From: an uncultured delta proteobacterium
Lineage (GTDB): Bacteria > Desulfobacterota > Syntrophorhabdia > Syntrophorhabdales > WCHB1-27
DNA length: 64,000 nucleotides
Reading direction: 5' to 3'
Assembly: GCA_963810935.1 (NCBI GenBank)
Contig: CAWEPK010000010.1
Span: 64,001-128,000 of the forward strand
This document shows, one piece after another, positions 13,852-33,455 of the stretch. A program made the position numbers and the translations under genes. Position 1 is the stretch's first letter. Every line of letters begins with the position of its first letter. The notes beneath the pieces are model-generated. The model was not told the DNA's origin and did not search any database. It saw nothing but the letters and a program-made list of their open reading frames with translations.

Positions 13852-16459
13852 ATGATAGGCGATTTCTTAAAGAAAATTGTAGGTACGAAGAACGAGCGCG
13901 AGATAAAGCGCATAGGCCCTGTTATCGACCAGATCAACACGTTCGAAGAACGGATGCGGTCCCTTTCCGACGACGAGCTTAAAGCGGTCACACCCGCCTT
14001 CAAAAAGCGCATTGCCGACGGGGAAACGCTCGACGCCCTCCTCCCGGAGGCCTTTGCCGCGGTAAGGGAGGCGGCGAGGCGGACGGTCAACATGCGCCAC
14101 TTCGACGTCCAGCTCATCGGAGGCGTGGTGCTCCACGAGGGCAAGATCGCGGAAATGGCCACGGGCGAGGGCAAAACCCTTGTGGCCACCCTTCCCGTCT
14201 ACCTCAACGCGCTTTCCGGAGACGGCGTCCACGTCGTAACGGTGAACGACTACCTGGCAAAGCGCGACTCGGAGTGGATGGGGCCGATCTATGCCTTCCT
14301 CGGCATTTCCGTAGGCGTCGTCGTTCACGGCCTCGAGGACGAGGACCGCAAAGAGATGTACGGACGGGACGTCACTTACGGCACGAACAACGAGTTCGGC
14401 TTCGACTATCTCCGGGACAACATGAAATACTCCGTGGAAGAATTCGTCCAGCGCGGGTTCAACTACGCGATAGTCGACGAGGTTGACAGCATACTGATCG
14501 ACGAGGCCAGGACTCCGCTGATTATATCGGGTCCCGCCGAGGAATCGACCGACAAGTACTACAAGATCAACAGGCTCATCTATCAACTGAAGAAAGAGGT
14601 CGACTTTAAGGTCGATGAGAAGGCAAAGAGCGCATACCTGACGGAAGAGGGCGTCGCGAAGATCGAGAAGCTGCTGAAGGTCGATAACCTTTATGACCCG
14701 AAATACGTCGAGTTCCTCCATCACATCAACCAGGCCCTGAAGGCGCACCAGCTCTTCGCGAGGGACGTCGACTACATCGTGAAAGACGGCCAGGTCATCA
14801 TCGTAGACGAGTTCACCGGCAGGCTCATGCCCGGCAGGCGGTTCAGCGACGGCCTCCACCAGGCCTTGGAGGCGAGGGAGAACGTCAAGATCGAGCGCGA
14901 GAACCAGACCCTCGCAACGGTCACGTTCCAGAACTATTTCCGCATGTACAAGAAGCTCGCCGGCATGACGGGCACGGCCGATACCGAGGCGATGGAGTTC
15001 AGGAAGATCTATAACCTGGACGTCATCGTCATCCCCACGAACCGGTCCCTCATAAGGACGAACTACCCGGACGTCGTCTACAGGACGGAGAAGGAGAAGT
15101 TCAAGGCCGTTGTGGGCGAGATCGAAGAGCTCGTATAAGAGAGGAAAGCCCGTGCTCGTCGGCACCTTCTCCATCGACAAATCGGAGAAGCTCGCCGAGA
15201 TGCTTAAGCGCAAGGGCATACCCCATCACGTGCTGAACGCAAAGATTCACGAGCGGGAGGCGGAGATCGTGGCCCAGGCGGGCAGGTACAAGGCCGTCAC
15301 GATATCGACGAACATGGCCGGGAGAGGCACCGATATTCTTCTGGGGGGCAACCCTAATTTTCTGGCGCGCGTGCTTGCGAAAGGCAAGGACGACGAGGAG
15401 TCCAGGCAGGCCGCGCTTGATGAAGCGAAGCGCATCTGCGAAAAAGAAAAAGAACAGGTCATCGCGGAGGGAGGGCTGCACATCCTGGGCACGGAGCGGC
15501 ACGAATCACGCAGGATCGACAACCAGCTCCGCGGCCGCTCCGGCAGGCAGGGCGACCCCGGCTCGTCGCGATTCTATGTCTCCCTCGAAGACGAGATCAT
15601 GCGCATCTTCGGCTCTGACCGGATCTCTCCGATCCTCGGAAAGATGGGGATGGAAGAGGACATGCCCATAGAGCACCGCCTTATCTCGAAGGCCATCGAG
15701 AACGCCCAGACAAGGGTAGAGGCGCACAACTTCGACATCAGGAAGTACCTCCTCGAATATGACAACGTGATGAACAAGCAGCGCGAGACCATCTACGGGA
15801 TGCGCAAGGAGATCATTGAAGACGGCGACATGCGGGAACGCACGGTCGAGCTGGTCGACGAGATCGTCGAAGCCTTCGTGGACGAGTACGCGCCCGAAAA
15901 AGTCTATCCTGAGGAATGGGACATCGAGTCCCTGAAAAACCGCATCTACGAGACGTTTTTCTTCCGCATCGACCTCGGCGCGATAGATTTCAAGTCGATA
16001 ACGAAGGCGGGGCTTCTCGACAAGGTCAAGGCCGCCGTTATGGCCGTGTACGAGGCTAAGGAGAAGGAATTCGGCGAGACGATGCGCAACATCGAGCAGT
16101 ATATCGCCTTAAGCTCGCTTGACGCGCATTGGAAAGAGCACCTCCTTTCCCTCGACCACCTGCGGGAGGGCATCGGCCTGCGCGGTTACGGGCAGAAAGA
16201 CCCCTTGCGGGAGTATCAGAGGGAGAGCTTCGATCTTTTCCTCGATATGCTCGACAGGGTCAACACGGACACGGTGCAGAAGGTCTTCGCCATCCAGCCG
16301 GCGCGGAATGAGGAAGAGATGAAGATGGAAGGACCGGCAATCTTCTTCAACAGGGGCGAAGAGGAAACGCCCATACAGTCGGGGGGCAAGATAGGCAGGA
16401 ACGACCCCTGCCCGTGCGGAAGCGGTAAAAAATACAAAAGGTGCTGCGGCAAGGGGTAA
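13852..16459 (+). CDS. secA: Preprotein translocase SecA (frameshift near 15132)
   Basis: [59 protein letters not shown]-terminal [19 protein letters not shown]; the two ORFs join by removing one base at ~15132. Confidence 0.96.
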
Positions 16460-20696: not shown

Positions 20697-21785
20697 ATGA
20701 CAGGATCGGGCCTTATCTCCTCTCTTGCCTTTGTGTTGCTCCTCGGCATGGCAGTCTCGGCCGGCGCTGCGGACAACGTCCGCCCTTTCCCCGACCGCCG
20801 CGAAGGGGTTTTTATTGCCCGCGATTTCAAGTTCCAGACCGGGGAGGTATTGCCCGAGCTTAAGCTGGGCTACACGACGCTCGGCTTGCCCCGGCGTGAC
20901 GCCTCCGGCGCGATTACGAACGCGGTGCTTCTCCTTCACGGGACAACGGGCACGGGCGGCAACTGGCTTGCGCCGTCCCTTGCAGAGGCCCTTTTCAGGG
21001 AAGGCCAGGCCCTCGATGCAGGCAAGTATTACCTGATCCTGGCAGACAGCATCGGACTGGGCCGCTCATCGAAACCGAGCGACGGCCTGAAGATCGCCTT
21101 TCCCCGATACGGGTACAAGGACATGGTCGAGGCACAGTATCGCCTGGTCACGGAGGGCCTGGGCGTCAAACACCTCCACCTGGTACTGGGGACATCGATG
21201 GGCGGGATGCAGACGTGGCTCTGGGCCGAAAGGCACCCCTATATGATGGACGGCGCAGTCGCCCTGACGAGCACGCCCGCGCAGATCTCCGGCCGCAATT
21301 TCATCTGGCGGCAGGTAATCGTGGAAGCGATCCGCAACGACCCGGACTGGAACGGGGGCAACTATACAATCCCGAAACCCACCCGGTTCATTTATGCAGT
21401 CCCGGTCTTCGCGGCAATGACCGATAGCGCGACCCACCTGCAGGAAATCGCCCCCACGCGCGAGGCGTCCGTTGCATATTACTACAAGCTCGTCATGGGC
21501 GCGAAAGGGCTCGACGCGAACGACTATCTCTATCGCTGGGAGGCATCGGCCGACTACGACCCGTGGCCGGACCTCGATAAGATCAAGACCAGGTTCCTCG
21601 CCATCAATTTTGCCGACGACCTCCTCAACCCGGCCGAGCTTAAGGTGGTGGAAAACTCCATGGAGAAGATCAAAAGCGGCAAATCGGTGCTGATCTCGCC
21701 GGCGAAGTCGATCGGTCACCAGAACCAGTCCCGGGGGGACGTATGGGGACCCTATCTGGCCGAGTTCATGAAGGGGCTGCCGTGA
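20697..21785 (+). CDS. Exported alpha/beta hydrolase, homoserine O-acetyltransferase (MetX)-like family
   Basis: AAGGAGG RBS, signal-peptide-like N-terminus, LLHGTTG, GTSMGG nucleophile elbow, DAND, D and GH catalytic positions. Confidence 0.75.
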   Translation: MTGSGLISSLAFVLLLGMAVSAGAADNVRPFPDRREGVFIARDFKFQTGEVLPELKLGYTTLGLPRRDASGAITNAVLLLHGTTGTGGNWLAPSLAEALFREGQALDAGKYYLILADSIGLGRSSKPSDGLKIAFPRYGYKDMVEAQYRLVTEGLGVKHLHLVLGTSMGGMQTWLWAERHPYMMDGAVALTSTPAQISGRNFIWRQVIVEAIRNDPDWNGGNYTIPKPTRFIYAVPVFAAMTDSATHLQEIAPTREASVAYYYKLVMGAKGLDANDYLYRWEASADYDPWPDLDKIKTRFLAINFADDLLNPAELKVVENSMEKIKSGKSVLISPAKSIGHQNQSRGDVWGPYLAEFMKGLP

Positions 21786-22990: not shown

Positions 22991-24826
22991 ATGAAACGAA
23001 GAGCGATTTGTTTGTTTGTAAGCATAGTCATGCTCGGTTTTTTCATCGGTACCTTTCACATCCGCGCTGCACTCGCGGAAGTAACCATCGAGGTCCTCAA
23101 TCCGAGGGGCGAAGTAGATCCGGCCCCCATTATTGCCCCATCCGCCAGGGTCCCCGACCTCGTGGGAAAGAAAGTGGGCGTTTACTGGAACAACAAAGCA
23201 GGGGGAGAGCATTTCTGGGATGTAATCGAGGCAGAGCTGAAAGTTAAGATGCCGGCCTTGAAGATCGTCCGCTACAACGGCGGCTTCGAGCCAAGCGACG
23301 CGCAGATTGCAGCTATGACAAAGGAGGTGGACGCCTTTTTCTACGGCGTCGGCGATTGAGGCTCCTGCACTTGGGCCGGCGTGTCCGGATCCGTGAGGAT
23401 CGATAAAACAGGAAAACCCGTAATATACGTAGTTACCGACAATTTCATCCACGATGCCAAATCGGCCGCCGAGGATACGGGGATGCCCCGCTTGCGGATG
23501 ATCACCGTCCCGGCGGATGAATACTATAAGAGGCGTTACAGCCTGGAGGATATCAAACCGGTCGCACTGGCCGCGATTAACGGATTGATAGACGGCCTCA
23601 CGCGGCCTTTGACCGCCGAAGAGGCGAGCACGAAGCCGAAACAGGCGCAAGCTGCGGGCACGATAAAATTTACGGCCGCGACATATGCGGAAGCCCTCGA
23701 GAAATTCAACCAGGAATTCCTCGATAACCACTGGGGCAGCGGCCTTCCGCTCGTGCCTCCGACGGCCGAGCGCGTAAAATGGATGCTCGCGGGGACTACG
23801 CGCTCCCCGAACGAAGTCATCGGGACCGTCGAGCCGAAGAGAGGTAAGGCGACGATAGAGAAGATCGCGATCAATGCAGTCATGGCCGGGGCAAAACCTG
23901 AGTACCTGCCCGTGATCATCGCCGCGATGGAGGGATTGACCGACAAGAATTACGACCTGCTCCACGTCATGGCATCGACCGGCTCGTTCACGCTCCAGGT
24001 CGTCGTCGATGGGCCGATCGCGGAAGAGATAGGCATGAACTCCGGGATCGGCCTTCTCGGGTATGGCTTCCGGGCGAACAATGCGATAGGCTACGCCTTG
24101 CGGCTCTGTCTTATTAATACGGGTCTGCTTTGGCCCGCAGTGAACGACATGGCCCTCGTCGGAAGGCCTTCCTCCCATACGTTCTACGTCTTCGCGGAGA
24201 ACCAGCGGAACAATCCATGGGGGCCCTATCACGTTTCGGAAGGCTATAAAAAGGAAGAGAGCTGCGTGACCGTAATGACGGTAGGCAGCTACAGCGCCTC
24301 GTCTGCCGGGCTGGTCGCCTTCGGCGGCGGAGCGGTCTTTCCGTGGACCCCGCAGCAGCTACTCGACAACATGGTGAAAACCATTATGGTAGGGCGCAAC
24401 ATGGACACCGTCTGGAAGCTGGGCACGGCCATACCTGCCCCCCAGAAGCACTTCCTCGTGCTCCACCCCGAATTCGTCATGGAGCTTGACCGCCTCGGCT
24501 ATACACGGAAGAAGATGCAGCAATACCTTTACGGCCGGAGCCGCGTGCCTTATGAAGAGCTGAGCGCCAAGGAGGTGGCGGCCTTCAAACGCAGGCTTGC
24601 CGATAAGGAGATACCGGCCGACCGGGTGGCCGTCTTTGAGGAGTCGCTCAAGGCGGGAGGAAAAGTGCCCATGCTCCTCAGGCCGGAGGATTGCGTTATC
24701 TTCGTGGCGGGCGGCATACCGGGTTACTCCTTCGGTGATTCCTATTTCTCGATACCGCCGCACGGAACTGCCGCGTTTATGACCAGAACGATCCACGGCG
24801 CGGCCCTGACAAAGGCAGGCAAATAA
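22991..24826 (+). CDS. UGSC-motif selenoprotein with signal peptide, fused to its GLPxVPPT partner domain (611 aa, Sec123 at TGA 23357-23359)
   Basis: AGGAGG RBS; ORFs 22904-23359 and 23381-24826 are in the same frame, reading GVGD-TGA-GSCTW; downstream HWGSGLPLVPPTAERV...EKIAINAVMAG domain; hairpin 3' of the UGA. Confidence 0.85.
23373..23392 (+). promoter_or_regulatory. Putative bacterial SECIS hairpin (UGSC gene)
   Basis: GGG-CCGG-(CGTGT)-CCGG-A-TCC, starting 13 nt after the UGA, G in the second loop position. Confidence 0.55.
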
Positions 24827-24837
24827 AGCACCGGAGG

Positions 24838-25323
24838 GTGATATTGGGACCCGCAGGCGGCCGCGGAAAACTTCTTTGGCCGACGGCCGCGCTTTTCCTC
24901 TTTTCCTTGCTCTTGTTGCCGGCCCTTCGCGCATCGACCGAAGGGGCGCCCGGCTACACCGGCTGGAAAAAATGTGAGGCATGCCATTCGAAAATAGCCG
25001 CGGAATGGAAAACAACGAGACATGCGGACGCATTCGAGCACCTGAAGAAAACGGGGCAGGAGGAGTTGCCGAATTGCGTCCGCTGCCACAGTACGGGATA
25101 TGACCGGGCGGGCGGTTTTATCGACGCCGAGATTACGCCGGGACTTGCAGGGGTCCAGTGCGAGGCATGCCATGGACCGGGCAGGCAGCACGCGGTTGCT
25201 CCGGCTAAAGAGAGCATCGCCGGCGCACCGGGAATAGAGACGTGCAGGCGGTGCCACACTCCGGGTCAGGACCCGGGGTTTGACTACGGGCGGAAAGTGA
25301 AGGGAGTCCATCGGGTGCGGTAG
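24838..25323 (+). CDS. Periplasmic tetraheme cytochrome c (c554-like)
   Basis: Four CxxCH motifs (CEACH, CVRCH, CEACH, CRRCH), W-x-x-T-x-H-A, GVQCEACHGPG; hydrophobic signal segment. Confidence 0.88.
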   Translation: MILGPAGGRGKLLWPTAALFLFSLLLLPALRASTEGAPGYTGWKKCEACHSKIAAEWKTTRHADAFEHLKKTGQEELPNCVRCHSTGYDRAGGFIDAEITPGLAGVQCEACHGPGRQHAVAPAKESIAGAPGIETCRRCHTPGQDPGFDYGRKVKGVHRVR

Positions 25324-25376
25324 CGGCCCTCGGTCCAAAACCGGCTCCGAGCAATTAACAAAGGAGGACGCATCGA

Positions 25377-26132
25377 ATGATGCAGGGCAAAAAACGCATA
25401 ATGATGCTTCCGGTCGTATCGCTCCTCGCCCTCCTTGCGGCAACCGCATTTATAGCGGCGGATGCGGCAGGGGCGGCGGGCATCAGGGTCACGCCGGACC
25501 GGACCGACGCCGGCACGGTAGACGAAGGGGTAATGTTAAACACCGCCTTTACTGTCGAGAATACGGGTAATGTGCCCCTGACGATTACGAACGTTCGCAC
25601 TAACTGAGCCTGCACAACCGGTGTGCTTGGCAAGCACACGCTAAAGCCGGGAGAAAAAACCGCGCTCAAGGTCGTATTCGACACGGCGGGCAACCCCGGG
25701 CCTTTCCGCAAGACGGCGACACTCACGACGGACGTCCCCGGACAGGAGGAGGTGGAAGTCGCCGTGACCGGGATGGTCAGGGAGGCGCCGGCCGCGAAGA
25801 TACGGGTAGAGCCGCGAAGGATAAGGCCGGTCCCGGCGGGGTCTCAAGGCGGGATGAAAGGGGAATTTACAATATTCAATAATGGGAGCCTGCCCCTCGT
25901 CATAGGGCGGGTTCATTCCAAAGAAAGCGCCAGGGTCTATTTCGACAGTAAAAAGGAAGGCAGCATTGTCGTCGAGCCGGGAGGCGCGAGAAAAATAGAG
26001 ATAGTTCTGGGCGAGGACAAACAGGCGGACCGGGCCGGGCAGGAGCTTGTCGCTATCGAGTCGAACGCGAGGAACGCGCCGCAAACCGGTTATGTTATAA
26101 TTATCGAGCATGGCGATCCTTCTAAGAAATAG
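25377..26132 (+). CDS. Exported DUF1573/Ig-like protein, putative selenoprotein (251 aa, Sec77 at TGA 25605-25607)
   Basis: AAGGAGG RBS; ORFs 25377-25607 and 25623-26132 are in frame, reading FTVENTGNVPLTITNVRTN-TGA-ACTTG...LKPGEK, matching the DUF1573 N-G--PL-I--V--SCGCT...I-PG pattern with U in place of the first Cys. Confidence 0.8.
25621..25639 (+). promoter_or_regulatory. Putative bacterial SECIS hairpin (DUF1573 gene)
   Basis: Perfect 8-bp stem GTGTGCTT-(GGC)-AAGCACAC starting 13 nt after the UGA, G-first loop. Confidence 0.65.
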
Positions 26133-26148
26133 GGCAAGGAGGAAAAAA

Positions 26149-26562
26149 ATGGTCAAGACCGCATCCCTGCTTTCCGTCATTATGGTGCTTGCGCTGCTCT
26201 ACGGTGTCACGGGCCGGGCGGCGGCCCAGGAAGAGGTCCCGCGCATCACCATCGAGGAACTGAAAGGCATAATGGACCGAAAAACGGATGTGGTGATCCT
26301 CGATACCCAGCCGAAGGCCCTCTATGACAAAGAGCATATCAAGGGGGCCATATCCTTCCCGTGGAAGCGGAAAATTGCGGCGCAGGACGTACAAAGCCTG
26401 CCCCGCGACAAGCTCATTGTCACGTATTGCGACTGCGGGCCGGGGGAATCAGACTCGGCCGGTGTCGCCTCCCAGTTGCTATCCTTCGGTTTCAGCGACG
26501 TAAAGGTGCTGAAAGACCCGTCGATACGGGGATGGAAAAAGGCCGGCTATCCTGTGGAGTAG
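26149..26562 (+). CDS. Exported rhodanese-like domain protein with YCDC motif
   Basis: AAGGAGG RBS, signal peptide, VPRITIEELK, HIKGAISFP, IVTYCDCG, GWKKAGYPVE. Confidence 0.85.
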   Translation: MVKTASLLSVIMVLALLYGVTGRAAAQEEVPRITIEELKGIMDRKTDVVILDTQPKALYDKEHIKGAISFPWKRKIAAQDVQSLPRDKLIVTYCDCGPGESDSAGVASQLLSFGFSDVKVLKDPSIRGWKKAGYPVE

Positions 26563-31817: not shown

Positions 31818-32908
31818 TTATCTGCGACTATTAATTGAAATTGTGCCCGGAATTGTGCCCACCTGCGCCTGTTCGGTAGTTTCTCGACTCTCTTCATGAA
31901 GAGCCGCAACTCGCTCACAGGCCCGCTTGAGGTCTTCCTCGTTGGTGATGTTGTACCTATCAAATACGGCCCGCGTCTTATGGCCGCTGATCTTCATGGC
32001 AACCTTTTCTGTTACCCCTGCCCTTACCATATTTCTGATCGCTGTTCTTCTAAGATCGTGGAAGAGTCTCCCTGGTATTCTCGCCCGATCACATGCATTC
32101 TCCCAGGCTTCACGCATGTCTCTTATCCGCTTTCCCTTACGAAAGAATACATATTCGCAGAGAGGATACTGGGAATCTCTTATCGTCTGCTGTCTCAGCA
32201 TCGTTTCGTATAGCTCCCCGCCCATGTAGACTATCCGTGCCTCGTCGTTCTTCGTCGTCCCTGCATCCAGGGTTACCTTCTTCTCGAAGATGTTCATCTG
32301 GTCCCACTTGAGCGATAATATCTCCTCTTTCCGCATGCCAGTGAAATACCCCATTACAAGAACGGGCCGGAGATATTCTGGCAGTTGCTCCTTCAGCTTT
32401 TCAAAATCCGCATACTCGAAATAGCCGGTTCTCACGTTGTTCTCTTTCAGCCTAGGAATATGGGGAACCTGTCCAACCTTGGCCGGGGTAGTTTGCGCCC
32501 CAAGCGTAAACATCCTCTTTAATGCTGCCAACTCTCGGTTGATAGTACCGTTTGCCGCGCCCGCCTCTTGCCTTTCAACAATGTAGTTCTTTATGCGGAA
32601 CGTGGTGATTTCGGCAACCCGGTTGCCTTTGAATTTCTTTTCAAGGTGAGCCTTCAGTTCCTCTGCCCTCTGAAGGGATTTTCGACCGTTCATCTTATAA
32701 TCGGTTATGAAATCAGCCGCGATCTCGTCGAACTTGATGCGCTCGATTTGCAGCCCCTTGAATCGCCCCTCGACTATTTCCCCTTCCCTTTCTTCAATAC
32801 TGCCTTGGCATCGGTTTCTTTCCGCGAATGACTGCTTTCCCTGTAGGGCTTGCCGTGCCGGTAATACTTAATCCAGTATGTTTTACCTCTGAGATAAATC
32901 ATTCCCAT
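31818..32908 (-). CDS. Tyrosine recombinase/integrase (frameshift near 32820)
   Basis: Catalytic R (TGMRKEE), K, HDLRR, GHKT, Y (DRYNI). The N-terminal arm-binding-like [25 protein letters not shown] (GGAGG RBS, ATG 32908) joins by adding one A at ~32820. Confidence 0.93.
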
Positions 32909-33155
32909 GGCCCTTTACCTCCTTTCTCGTTTTCGTTTCCTTCACTCCCTTCTCGGCATTCATTGCCTCAATACCCGCAAGGGCAAGACCCAGGAAAGAT
33001 GGAATCTCTCTTGTCCCGGTCTCCCAGCGAGCTACCGTCACTCTGGACACTCTCAAAGCAGCCGCAAGTTTCATTTGACTATACTTGTTCACCTCCCTCC
33101 ATAGTTTTAGGTCTTCCGGCGTCATGAATAGTAGCCAACGGCGAAGTGTTTCCAT
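32883..33155 (-). CDS. XRE-family helix-turn-helix regulator
   Basis: LKLWREVNKYSQMKLAAALRVSRVTVARWETG. Confidence 0.85.
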   Translation of the reverse strand: METLRRWLLFMTPEDLKLWREVNKYSQMKLAAALRVSRVTVARWETGTREIPSFLGLALAGIEAMNAEKGVKETKTRKEVKGHGNDLSQR

Positions 33156-33215
33156 ATCCTATCTCCTTCCTCAATATTGTAACCAGTGGCTACACTGTTG
33201 TCAACAAGAATTCTT

Positions 33216-33455
33216 TCAGAAGGTAAAGCTGGTTTTGTTCCGCTCAATATAGTCATCCATGTCTTTTACGTCGAGAAGCACACGGCGGCCGTCTCTGACT
33301 GTGATGATCTTCCCATCCCATATGATCTGCCACAAGGCGTTTACTGTCCGCCCTAAGTAATAGGCGGCTTCATGGACAGTATAGAGCCTCTTGACCGGTC
33401 CTTTCGGATTCTTCCGATCTACTTTGTACTTGTTTAGCCGCTCGGTCTTAGTCAT
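33216..33455 (-). CDS. Excisionase-like winged-HTH protein
   Basis: RLYTVHEAAYYLG...VRDGRRVLLDVKDMDDYIE; small, basic, upstream of int. Confidence 0.8.
   Translation of the reverse strand: MTKTERLNKYKVDRKNPKGPVKRLYTVHEAAYYLGRTVNALWQIIWDGKIITVRDGRRVLLDVKDMDDYIERNKTSFTF

Follow-up and report, generated by a model that had tools for sequence, protein, structure and literature searches.

A conserved, exported four-gene selenoprotein module in an uncultured Desulfobacterota bacterium, with a possible heme-to-selenol reductant relay

We analysed a 64,000-nucleotide stretch of DNA (the window) from an uncultured delta proteobacterium of the Desulfobacterota lineage WCHB1-27 (GenBank assembly GCA_963810935.1, contig CAWEPK010000010.1, positions 64,001–128,000), in which four co-oriented genes at window positions 22991–26562 encode two selenoproteins, a tetraheme cytochrome and a rhodanese-fold protein. 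These genes constitute a real, conserved, exported module that is reshuffled and sometimes fused in unrelated anaerobes. We propose, with a probability of roughly one half, that the cytochrome and the selenocysteine (Sec)-bearing immunoglobulin (Ig)-like protein deliver electrons that re-reduce an exported, GrdB-like selenoenzyme. The proposal builds on Sec codons, export signals, co-occurrence, fusion, homology and folds, all established computationally.

The four genes lie on the forward strand with gaps of 11, 53 and 16 nucleotides, and re-reading the coordinates confirmed the layout given in the initial annotation. Gene 1 (22991..24826), defined as a read-through open reading frame (ORF) with a PF24696 match and a structural model, encodes an exported 611-residue UGSC-family selenoprotein. 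Gene 2 (24838..25323) encodes an exported c554-type tetraheme cytochrome c with four CxxCH motifs; it may instead start at a TTG at 24844, 6 nucleotides 3′ of a GGAGG. Gene 3 (25377..26132) encodes an exported 251-residue selenoprotein of the DUF1573/OS_HP2 type, and gene 4 (26149..26562) an exported single-domain rhodanese-fold protein. In-frame TGA codons occur in gene 1 (23357..23359, Sec123) and gene 3 (25605..25607, Sec77), both at Cys-type motifs (G-D-U-G-S-C and U-A-C). Under translation table 11 the four genes are read as six ORFs, the miscalling that had been foreseen, and protein databases hold mostly the 3′ fragments of genes 1 and 3 (~475 and ~165 residues). Because both selenoproteins are split by gene callers, the module is hidden in annotation.

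Export was called from hydrophobicity on the Kyte–Doolittle (KD) scale, a heuristic used in place of SignalP. Each of the four proteins begins with a hydrophobic stretch (best 11-residue KD 2.6–3.2, versus 0.9–1.5 in four cytoplasmic controls), and no later transmembrane segment was found in any of them. Orthologues reach an N-terminal KD of at least 2.0 in 30 of 32 cases for UGSC, 19 of 19 for the cytochrome, 32 of 32 for unfused DUF1573 and 28 of 29 for the rhodanese; among the genome's long ORFs the figure is 408 of 1432. By this measure the signal-peptide-like N-termini first noted in the window extend to most orthologues. Scans of promoters and terminators were uninformative (3 and 8 sites versus 1.7 and 5.2 expected), and an Rfam scan returned 0 matches.

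The two TGAs are very probably selenocysteine codons, as read-through had been assumed from the start; codon conservation, a hairpin of the selenocysteine insertion sequence (SECIS) type in gene 3 and the sel genes all point this way. Across 56 gene-3 loci, which include a few near-duplicates, the codon is TGA in 54 and TGT (Cys) in 2, while gene-1 orthologues have TGA in most cases and Cys in one (L037). Contigs assembled from two short-read runs keep both TGAs; the runs come from one study, possibly the source of the assembly, and so are not independent. Since these contigs are unchanged and TGA also occurs in other species, the codons are not sequencing errors, an explanation that would have undone the initial annotation. 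Hairpins were judged by the spacing and loop-G rule for SECIS elements. That of gene 3 (25621..25639, plus strand) has a 7-pair stem and the loop UGGCA; among orthologues the loop is NGGNA, 96% of alignment cells are paired and 4 of the 7 pairs carry two-sided changes. None of 500 shuffles was as good and slid controls were 14–52% paired, in a covariation test that is inflated by the relatedness of the sequences. Only 1 of 60 synonymous recodings folds equally well, and both natural Cys forms of gene 3 (L096, L137) have lost the hairpin. The gene-1 candidate (23373..23392, plus strand, loop CGUGU) keeps the same register in 7 close orthologues, with no two-sided changes, and 32 of 60 recodings fold equally well. 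Thus, of the two 3′ hairpins expected from the initial annotation, the gene-3 stem is borne out by covariation and the gene-1 hairpin is a weak candidate. As wholes, the 60- and 80-nucleotide stretches after the TGAs show no unusual stability (z −1.1 to +0.3).

The machinery for Sec decoding was recovered with one flaw: selA, selD and tRNA-Sec are present as anticipated, while selB is frameshifted in the assembly. There are two selD genes, one of them TGA-containing and of the Sec type, and three tRNA-Sec genes; further TGAs occur in 2 of 10 FlpD/MvhD matches. The tRNA-Sec genes are nearly identical (G000 C4:30323-30418, C6:4921-5016 and C11:126660-126755), and their number may be inflated, as two lie near contig ends and bin contamination is 7%. 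Compared with a genome of the same genus, the selB gene (G000 C5:224288-226169) differs by three single-base indels. These indels seem to be errors of an indel-prone assembly: selB is one of 3 genes, out of 29 conserved ones tested, in which the frame changes, secA (window 13852-16459) is split by a frame change near 15110-15138, and selB is above cut-off and stop-free in 5 of 5 carrier genomes (one match partial).

The full set of four is found in 19 loci (window included; 17 plus 2 from two locus sets), in four gene orders and with freely varying flanks, so the co-occurrence in other genomes on which the initial annotation depended is established. By their record names, carriers belong to the Desulfobacterota (delta-proteobacterial, Syntrophaceae and Syntrophorhabdaceae) and the Nitrospirota (Nitrospiraceae), and a cytochrome-less form was found in an Acidobacteriota genome. 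Starting from DUF1573, 15 of 46 close orthologues had at least 3 kb on both sides (5 of them query rows), after 9 duplicate or near-duplicate loci and 6 repeats of other fetches had been dropped. Rhodanese and UGSC genes accompany all 15 and the cytochrome 11; without the query rows (n=10) the counts are 10, 10 and 6. Starting from the rhodanese in 96 genomes, 13 of 13 matches adjoin a UGSC gene (7 of 7 non-query; 6 query rows), 8 of them with all four genes. In every one of the 19 four-gene loci the cytochrome immediately precedes DUF1573; 8 of these loci encode the two as a single fusion, and none of nine fused DUF1573 domains retains its own signal peptide. Identity to the window proteins is 40–72% for the rhodanese, cytochrome and DUF1573 but 22–87% for the UGSC partner; a steady trio beside a varying UGSC is what a general accessory would show. 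The identities of the four genes, compared pairwise, also correlate (rho 0.27–0.66), but kinship alone could yield such values and they were dropped as evidence of co-evolution.

Within this module the UGSC and rhodanese genes are the core, and the cytochrome–DUF1573 pair is one of several exchangeable redox partners, because other UGSC loci carry different ones. Two encode a SoxB-related, UshA-like P-C-G-U selenoprotein fused to the same tetraheme domain (L030:4439-5776, L031:5789-7102), and two combine a rhodanese and a short UGSC protein (U-G-H-C) with a MauE membrane protein (L191:6653-8204, L192:6905-8558).

Gene 1 is built of a signal peptide, a flavodoxin-like alpha/beta domain bearing U123-G-S-C126 and a C-terminal domain of ~400 residues. 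Residues 34-175 match PF24696 (UGSC) at 90.2 bits against a cut-off of 25, and the score to the NF041046 equivalog of the UGSC family is 69.3 bits, below its cut-off of 125. The predicted model (pLDDT (predicted local distance difference test) 93.7; predicted template modelling score, pTM, 0.92) retrieved generic flavodoxin/Rossmann matches to the N-domain (Z≤10), which filled the whole-model fold search. Published work calls UGSC 'likely Trx-like' and mentioned a fusion to an 'Unknown_1' domain in 2008 (PMC1976440, PMC2398784). A thioredoxin fold was absent among the top fold matches, the N-domain being flavodoxin/Rossmann-like. The best Foldseek match, a class I fumarate hydratase (E 2e-4, TM 0.17), is a weak lead, and against PDB sequences one search gave 0 matches at E≤10 and another a best E of 0.05. 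The C-terminal domain belongs to no Pfam or NCBIfam family, has no conserved Cys or His, and falls in unnamed Atlas clusters with a low recognition score.

The profile of the UGSC domain aligns with GrdB/PrdB at a probability of 96.75 (E 3e-10, score 69), Sec upon Sec, whereas reversed, shuffled and unrelated controls scored 10–18. The homology covers the region around U-x-x-C and the next helix and strand. By profile comparison, then, the UGSC domain is a distant GrdB/PrdB relative with a homologous U-x-x-C catalytic region. No direct match to PF07355 (GrdB/PrdB) was found among 86 UGSC members, nor any in the genome. The C-terminal domain was also considered as a GrdE/PrdA-like pyruvoyl proprotein; this is unsupported (PF09338 matched one of the 86 members, at E 0.07), and no GrdE/PrdA pyruvoyl partner was found among the flanking proteins scanned.

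The UGSC fusions vary considerably. Sec, and often the second Cys too, is lost in several full-length fusions (P0008, P0012, P0043, P0084; L027, L028, L033). One genome (G014) has up to 8 UGSC-fusion matches, and three metagenome loci (L101, L102, L106) carry three or more fusions each. At six loci a full UGSC gene is followed by a second exported gene comprising the gene-1 C-terminal domain only (L032:3570-4895, L078, L079, L080, L121, L125), which suggests a heteromer.

The gene-2 cytochrome scores above cut-off for PF13435, has its four CxxCH motifs and falls below the NF043010 cut-off. Only three distal His are conserved for four hemes, so by sequence one heme is probably open (five-coordinate); by analogy this would be heme 2. 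Gene 3 matches PF07610 (DUF1573) at 89.7 against a cut-off of 26.1 and the OS_HP2 model NF041425 at 73.8 bits, below its cut-off of 100. It is predicted to fold into two PapD/ASH-like Ig domains, with U77-A-C79 on an exposed turn between two strands; the motif is U-A-C in most orthologues. Its fold matches include VesB (Z 13.0, root-mean-square deviation 1.9 over 102 residues) and HYDIN (Z 12.1).

Gene 4 scores above cut-off for PF00581, with a Cys at the start of the active-site loop. Its motif is Y-C-D-C and the loop, C-D-C-G-P-G-E-S-D-S, is acidic. Against the CxU rhodanese selenoprotein family NF041203 it reaches 72.8 bits, below the cut-off of 115, and C-D-C replaces C-x-U; by sequence it is a Cys relative of that family. 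Thiosulfate sulfurtransferases carry a basic residue (Arg) in this loop, which suits an anionic substrate. Arg was found in the loop of 0 of 30 gene-4 orthologues, leaving the sulfur transfer originally ascribed to the rhodanese doubtful.

Reductive cleavage by GrdB and PrdB relies on Sec, and other proteins are needed to re-reduce them (PMC13188914). In the relay that we propose, gene 1 would be the enzyme: Sec123 of U-x-x-C would attack and reductively cleave a substrate held with the C-terminal domain, and would end oxidised. Genes 2 and 3 would form one heme-to-selenol adaptor unit, in which the tetraheme takes electrons from a respiratory or periplasmic pool and hands them on to the Ig-fold protein, whose U-x-C loop would receive them, probably at open heme 2. 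The Ig-fold protein would then re-reduce the gene-1 enzyme, either directly or via the rhodanese-fold protein with its CxC motif, which of all neighbours accompanies the enzyme most constantly and may shuttle electrons or a sulfur/selenium atom. Such a relay would replace the NADPH–thioredoxin supply of the cytoplasmic Grd systems, which is out of reach for an exported relative. We infer the electron path and its direction, the physical contacts, the open heme and the substrate from the data above. That the substrate is a sulfur compound is a tentative suggestion, and the sulfur-linked neighbours of relatives are a hint in that direction. Equally tentative is the wider idea that the module is a new kind of 'thioredoxin system' for the periplasm. 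Respiration would be coupled to exported GrdB-like selenoenzymes through a heme-to-selenol transducer whose open heme is contacted by C79 or U77.

Several observations weigh against this relay. Only 4 of 20 loci found from UGSC contain DUF1573, 7 loci keep the rhodanese, DUF1573 and UGSC genes and lack the cytochrome, and nine close DUF1573 orthologues, mostly on short contigs, lack these partners on the DNA available (L100, L104, L105, L107, L111-L113, L115, L117). Distant cytochrome–DUF1573 pairs sit in arylsulfotransferase loci without UGSC. The likeness of the UGSC domain to GrdB is confined to 60–85 columns. A model of the cytochrome–DUF1573 fusion (pTM 0.58) has a low-confidence cytochrome part and is too uncertain to show docking of U-x-C on a heme. 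The operon contains no membrane electron donor, no NapC/NirT family member was found in the genome, and the selB indels described above belong here as well. Genes for heme c maturation are present in the genome, as is one gene of the DsbD/CcdA family. Elsewhere in the genome, a 13-heme and a 4-heme cytochrome adjoin a cytochrome c assembly gene (G000 C1:10496-12950) and are possible electron donors.

The first alternative makes the cytochrome and DUF1573 protein themselves the enzyme, a split polysulfide or selenite reductase of MccSep-like, convergent design. C79 would be a ligand of the open heme and U77 the residue that attacks the substrate; the rhodanese would be a Sud-like polysulfide carrier, and UGSC would act upstream or in parallel. 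MccSep/ExtKL of Geobacter is a periplasmic five-heme polysulfide reductase in which an Ig-like domain, present alongside the multiheme domain, places Sec at a His/Cys heme (PMC13510729, 2026), and Sud is a precedent for the carrier (PMC2885270). The three distal His for four hemes would fit such an enzyme, as would the sulfur-linked neighbours seen in relatives (YeeE/YedE, arylsulfotransferase, PF03601 and the SoxB-related UshA-like protein). However, in the 7 loci lacking the cytochrome DUF1573 persists with rhodanese and UGSC, the MccSep model NF040886 gives no match, and the acidic, Arg-free rhodanese loop (30 of 30) is a poor fit for an anionic substrate. We regard this alternative as unlikely.

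Slightly less probable is a maturation or repair system, in which the PapD-like gene-3 protein would be both chaperone and oxidoreductase for Se–S or S–S bonds of exported clients and the cytochrome an electron sink. DsbL and DsbI, which serve arylsulfate sulfotransferase, offer a model. The PapD/ASH-like Ig folds of gene 3 (VesB, HYDIN) agree with this, and the cytochrome–DUF1573 pair accompanies different clients in the UGSC and arylsulfotransferase loci. The PapD-like fold is common, though, and no proof of function, and the alignment of the UGSC U-x-x-C with a catalytic motif speaks for turnover and against a structural bond, making this a rather improbable account. An extracytoplasmic module for binding and reducing metals or metalloids (Hg, As, Cu, Se), whose ligands would be the CxC and UxC loops, is improbable. 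It could draw on the acidic C-x-C loop of gene 4, the exposed turn on which the gene-3 model places U-x-C, and one selenoprotein neighbourhood that has been assigned to organometallic chemistry (PMC13188914), but among the 101 flanking proteins scanned there is no recurring metal transporter, metal regulator or resistance gene. Finally, true stops at the TGAs, with Sec decoding lost and the locus decaying or yielding fragments, are very improbable: the selB indels and the statistically unremarkable gene-1 hairpin would allow it, but the genome has selA, a Sec-type selD and three tRNA-Sec genes, the assembly has indel errors in other genes too, the selB matches of all five carriers are stop-free (one being partial), and both natural Cys forms of gene 3 lack the hairpin.

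Each protein of the module belongs to a catalogued family: UGSC (PF24696), DUF1573/OS_HP2, the c554 type (PF13435) and rhodanese (PF00581). UGSC, DUF1573 (motif UGC), the CxU rhodanese and UshA-like proteins are listed among selenoprotein families of largely unknown function (PMC13188914). The initial annotation did not recognise the combination as a described system; no description of it was found in the literature searched, supplements aside, although every part is a catalogued family, and that literature contained no mention of a DUF1573–tetraheme pairing or fusion. The operon section of the review names Grd, Prd, Frh/Hdr, SAO and Tso, and the present set is absent there (PMC13188914). The module is thus probably a selenoprotein operon assembled from known but functionally blank families, in a combination not previously described.

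Compared with its relatives, gene 1 shares the U-G-S-C motif of the UGSC family (PF24696, NF041046) but is an exported 611-residue fusion with a flavodoxin/Rossmann-like model, whereas no partners are described for the published family in the excerpts available. Unlike GrdB and PrdB (PF07355), it is exported and carries a different fused domain, in an operon without Grd/Prd partners or thioredoxin. Gene 3 shares Sec in U-x-C with DUF1573/OS_HP2 (PF07610, NF041425), from which it differs by U-A-C in most orthologues and by two Ig domains. The gene-2 type is shorter (~120 residues) than cytochrome c554 (PDB 1BVB) or the C-terminal domain of UshA-like NF041198, has no HAO context and has a DUF1573 partner. 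For exported catalysis by heme plus Sec, with the Sec carried by an Ig-like domain, MccSep is the nearest tested precedent: it has in common with the module a periplasmic multiheme, a Sec-bearing Ig-like domain and an occurrence in similar phyla. The module nevertheless has four hemes rather than five, often divides the heme and Sec parts between two genes, has U-x-C rather than a lone Sec, shows no sequence match (NF040886), and adds UGSC and rhodanese genes; exported heme-plus-Sec catalysis may thus have arisen more than once. The SAO and Tso operons likewise hold several selenoprotein genes of unknown function in a conserved neighbourhood, and TsoB has a rhodanese domain (PMC13188914), but the module is made of different families.

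The locus connects its selenoproteins both with a heme protein and with the chemistry of GrdB/PrdB. Were the wider idea of a heme-to-selenol transducer correct, anaerobes would respire sulfur or organic compounds of a class not yet recognised, or cleave them outside the cell, and the transducer would serve a large family of exported GrdB-like selenoenzymes with an uncatalogued C-terminal domain. Because the cytochrome–DUF1573 fusion and the Cys forms occur naturally, electron transfer could be tested in vitro in a defined system.

Two other neighbourhoods of gene-2 and gene-3 relatives were noted. An arylsulfotransferase-like gene stands beside the distant cytochrome and DUF1573 in four loci (L134:44-8269, L135:47-7785, L136:264-7505, L137:5489-9810). 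L134–L136 also encode HHH proteins ending in Cys and an exported protein of 980–1000 residues without a Pfam match, and L135–L136 a PF03601 transporter match; the L134–L136 type is apparently a second conserved, undescribed neighbourhood. A DUF1573 subgroup with U-G-C immediately follows a transporter gene of the YeeE/YedE type (PF04143) (L105, L107, L112, L115, L117).

Of 129 flanking ORFs picked around the module, 101 were scanned, and these differed freely from locus to locus. Flanking genes were rejected as module members, the upstream hydrolase and PAC2 being absent beside the module in the loci tested, and purL follows the module only in the same-genus genome. The hydrolase (window 20697-21785), an alpha/beta protein matching NF005071 (MetX-like) with a signal-like N-terminus, is not conserved in its upstream position. 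Further downstream, at window 31818-33455, an integrase-like ORF and small helix-turn-helix-like ORFs adjoin a tRNA-Leu gene with unusual sequence beyond, in what looks like the edge of an integrated element.

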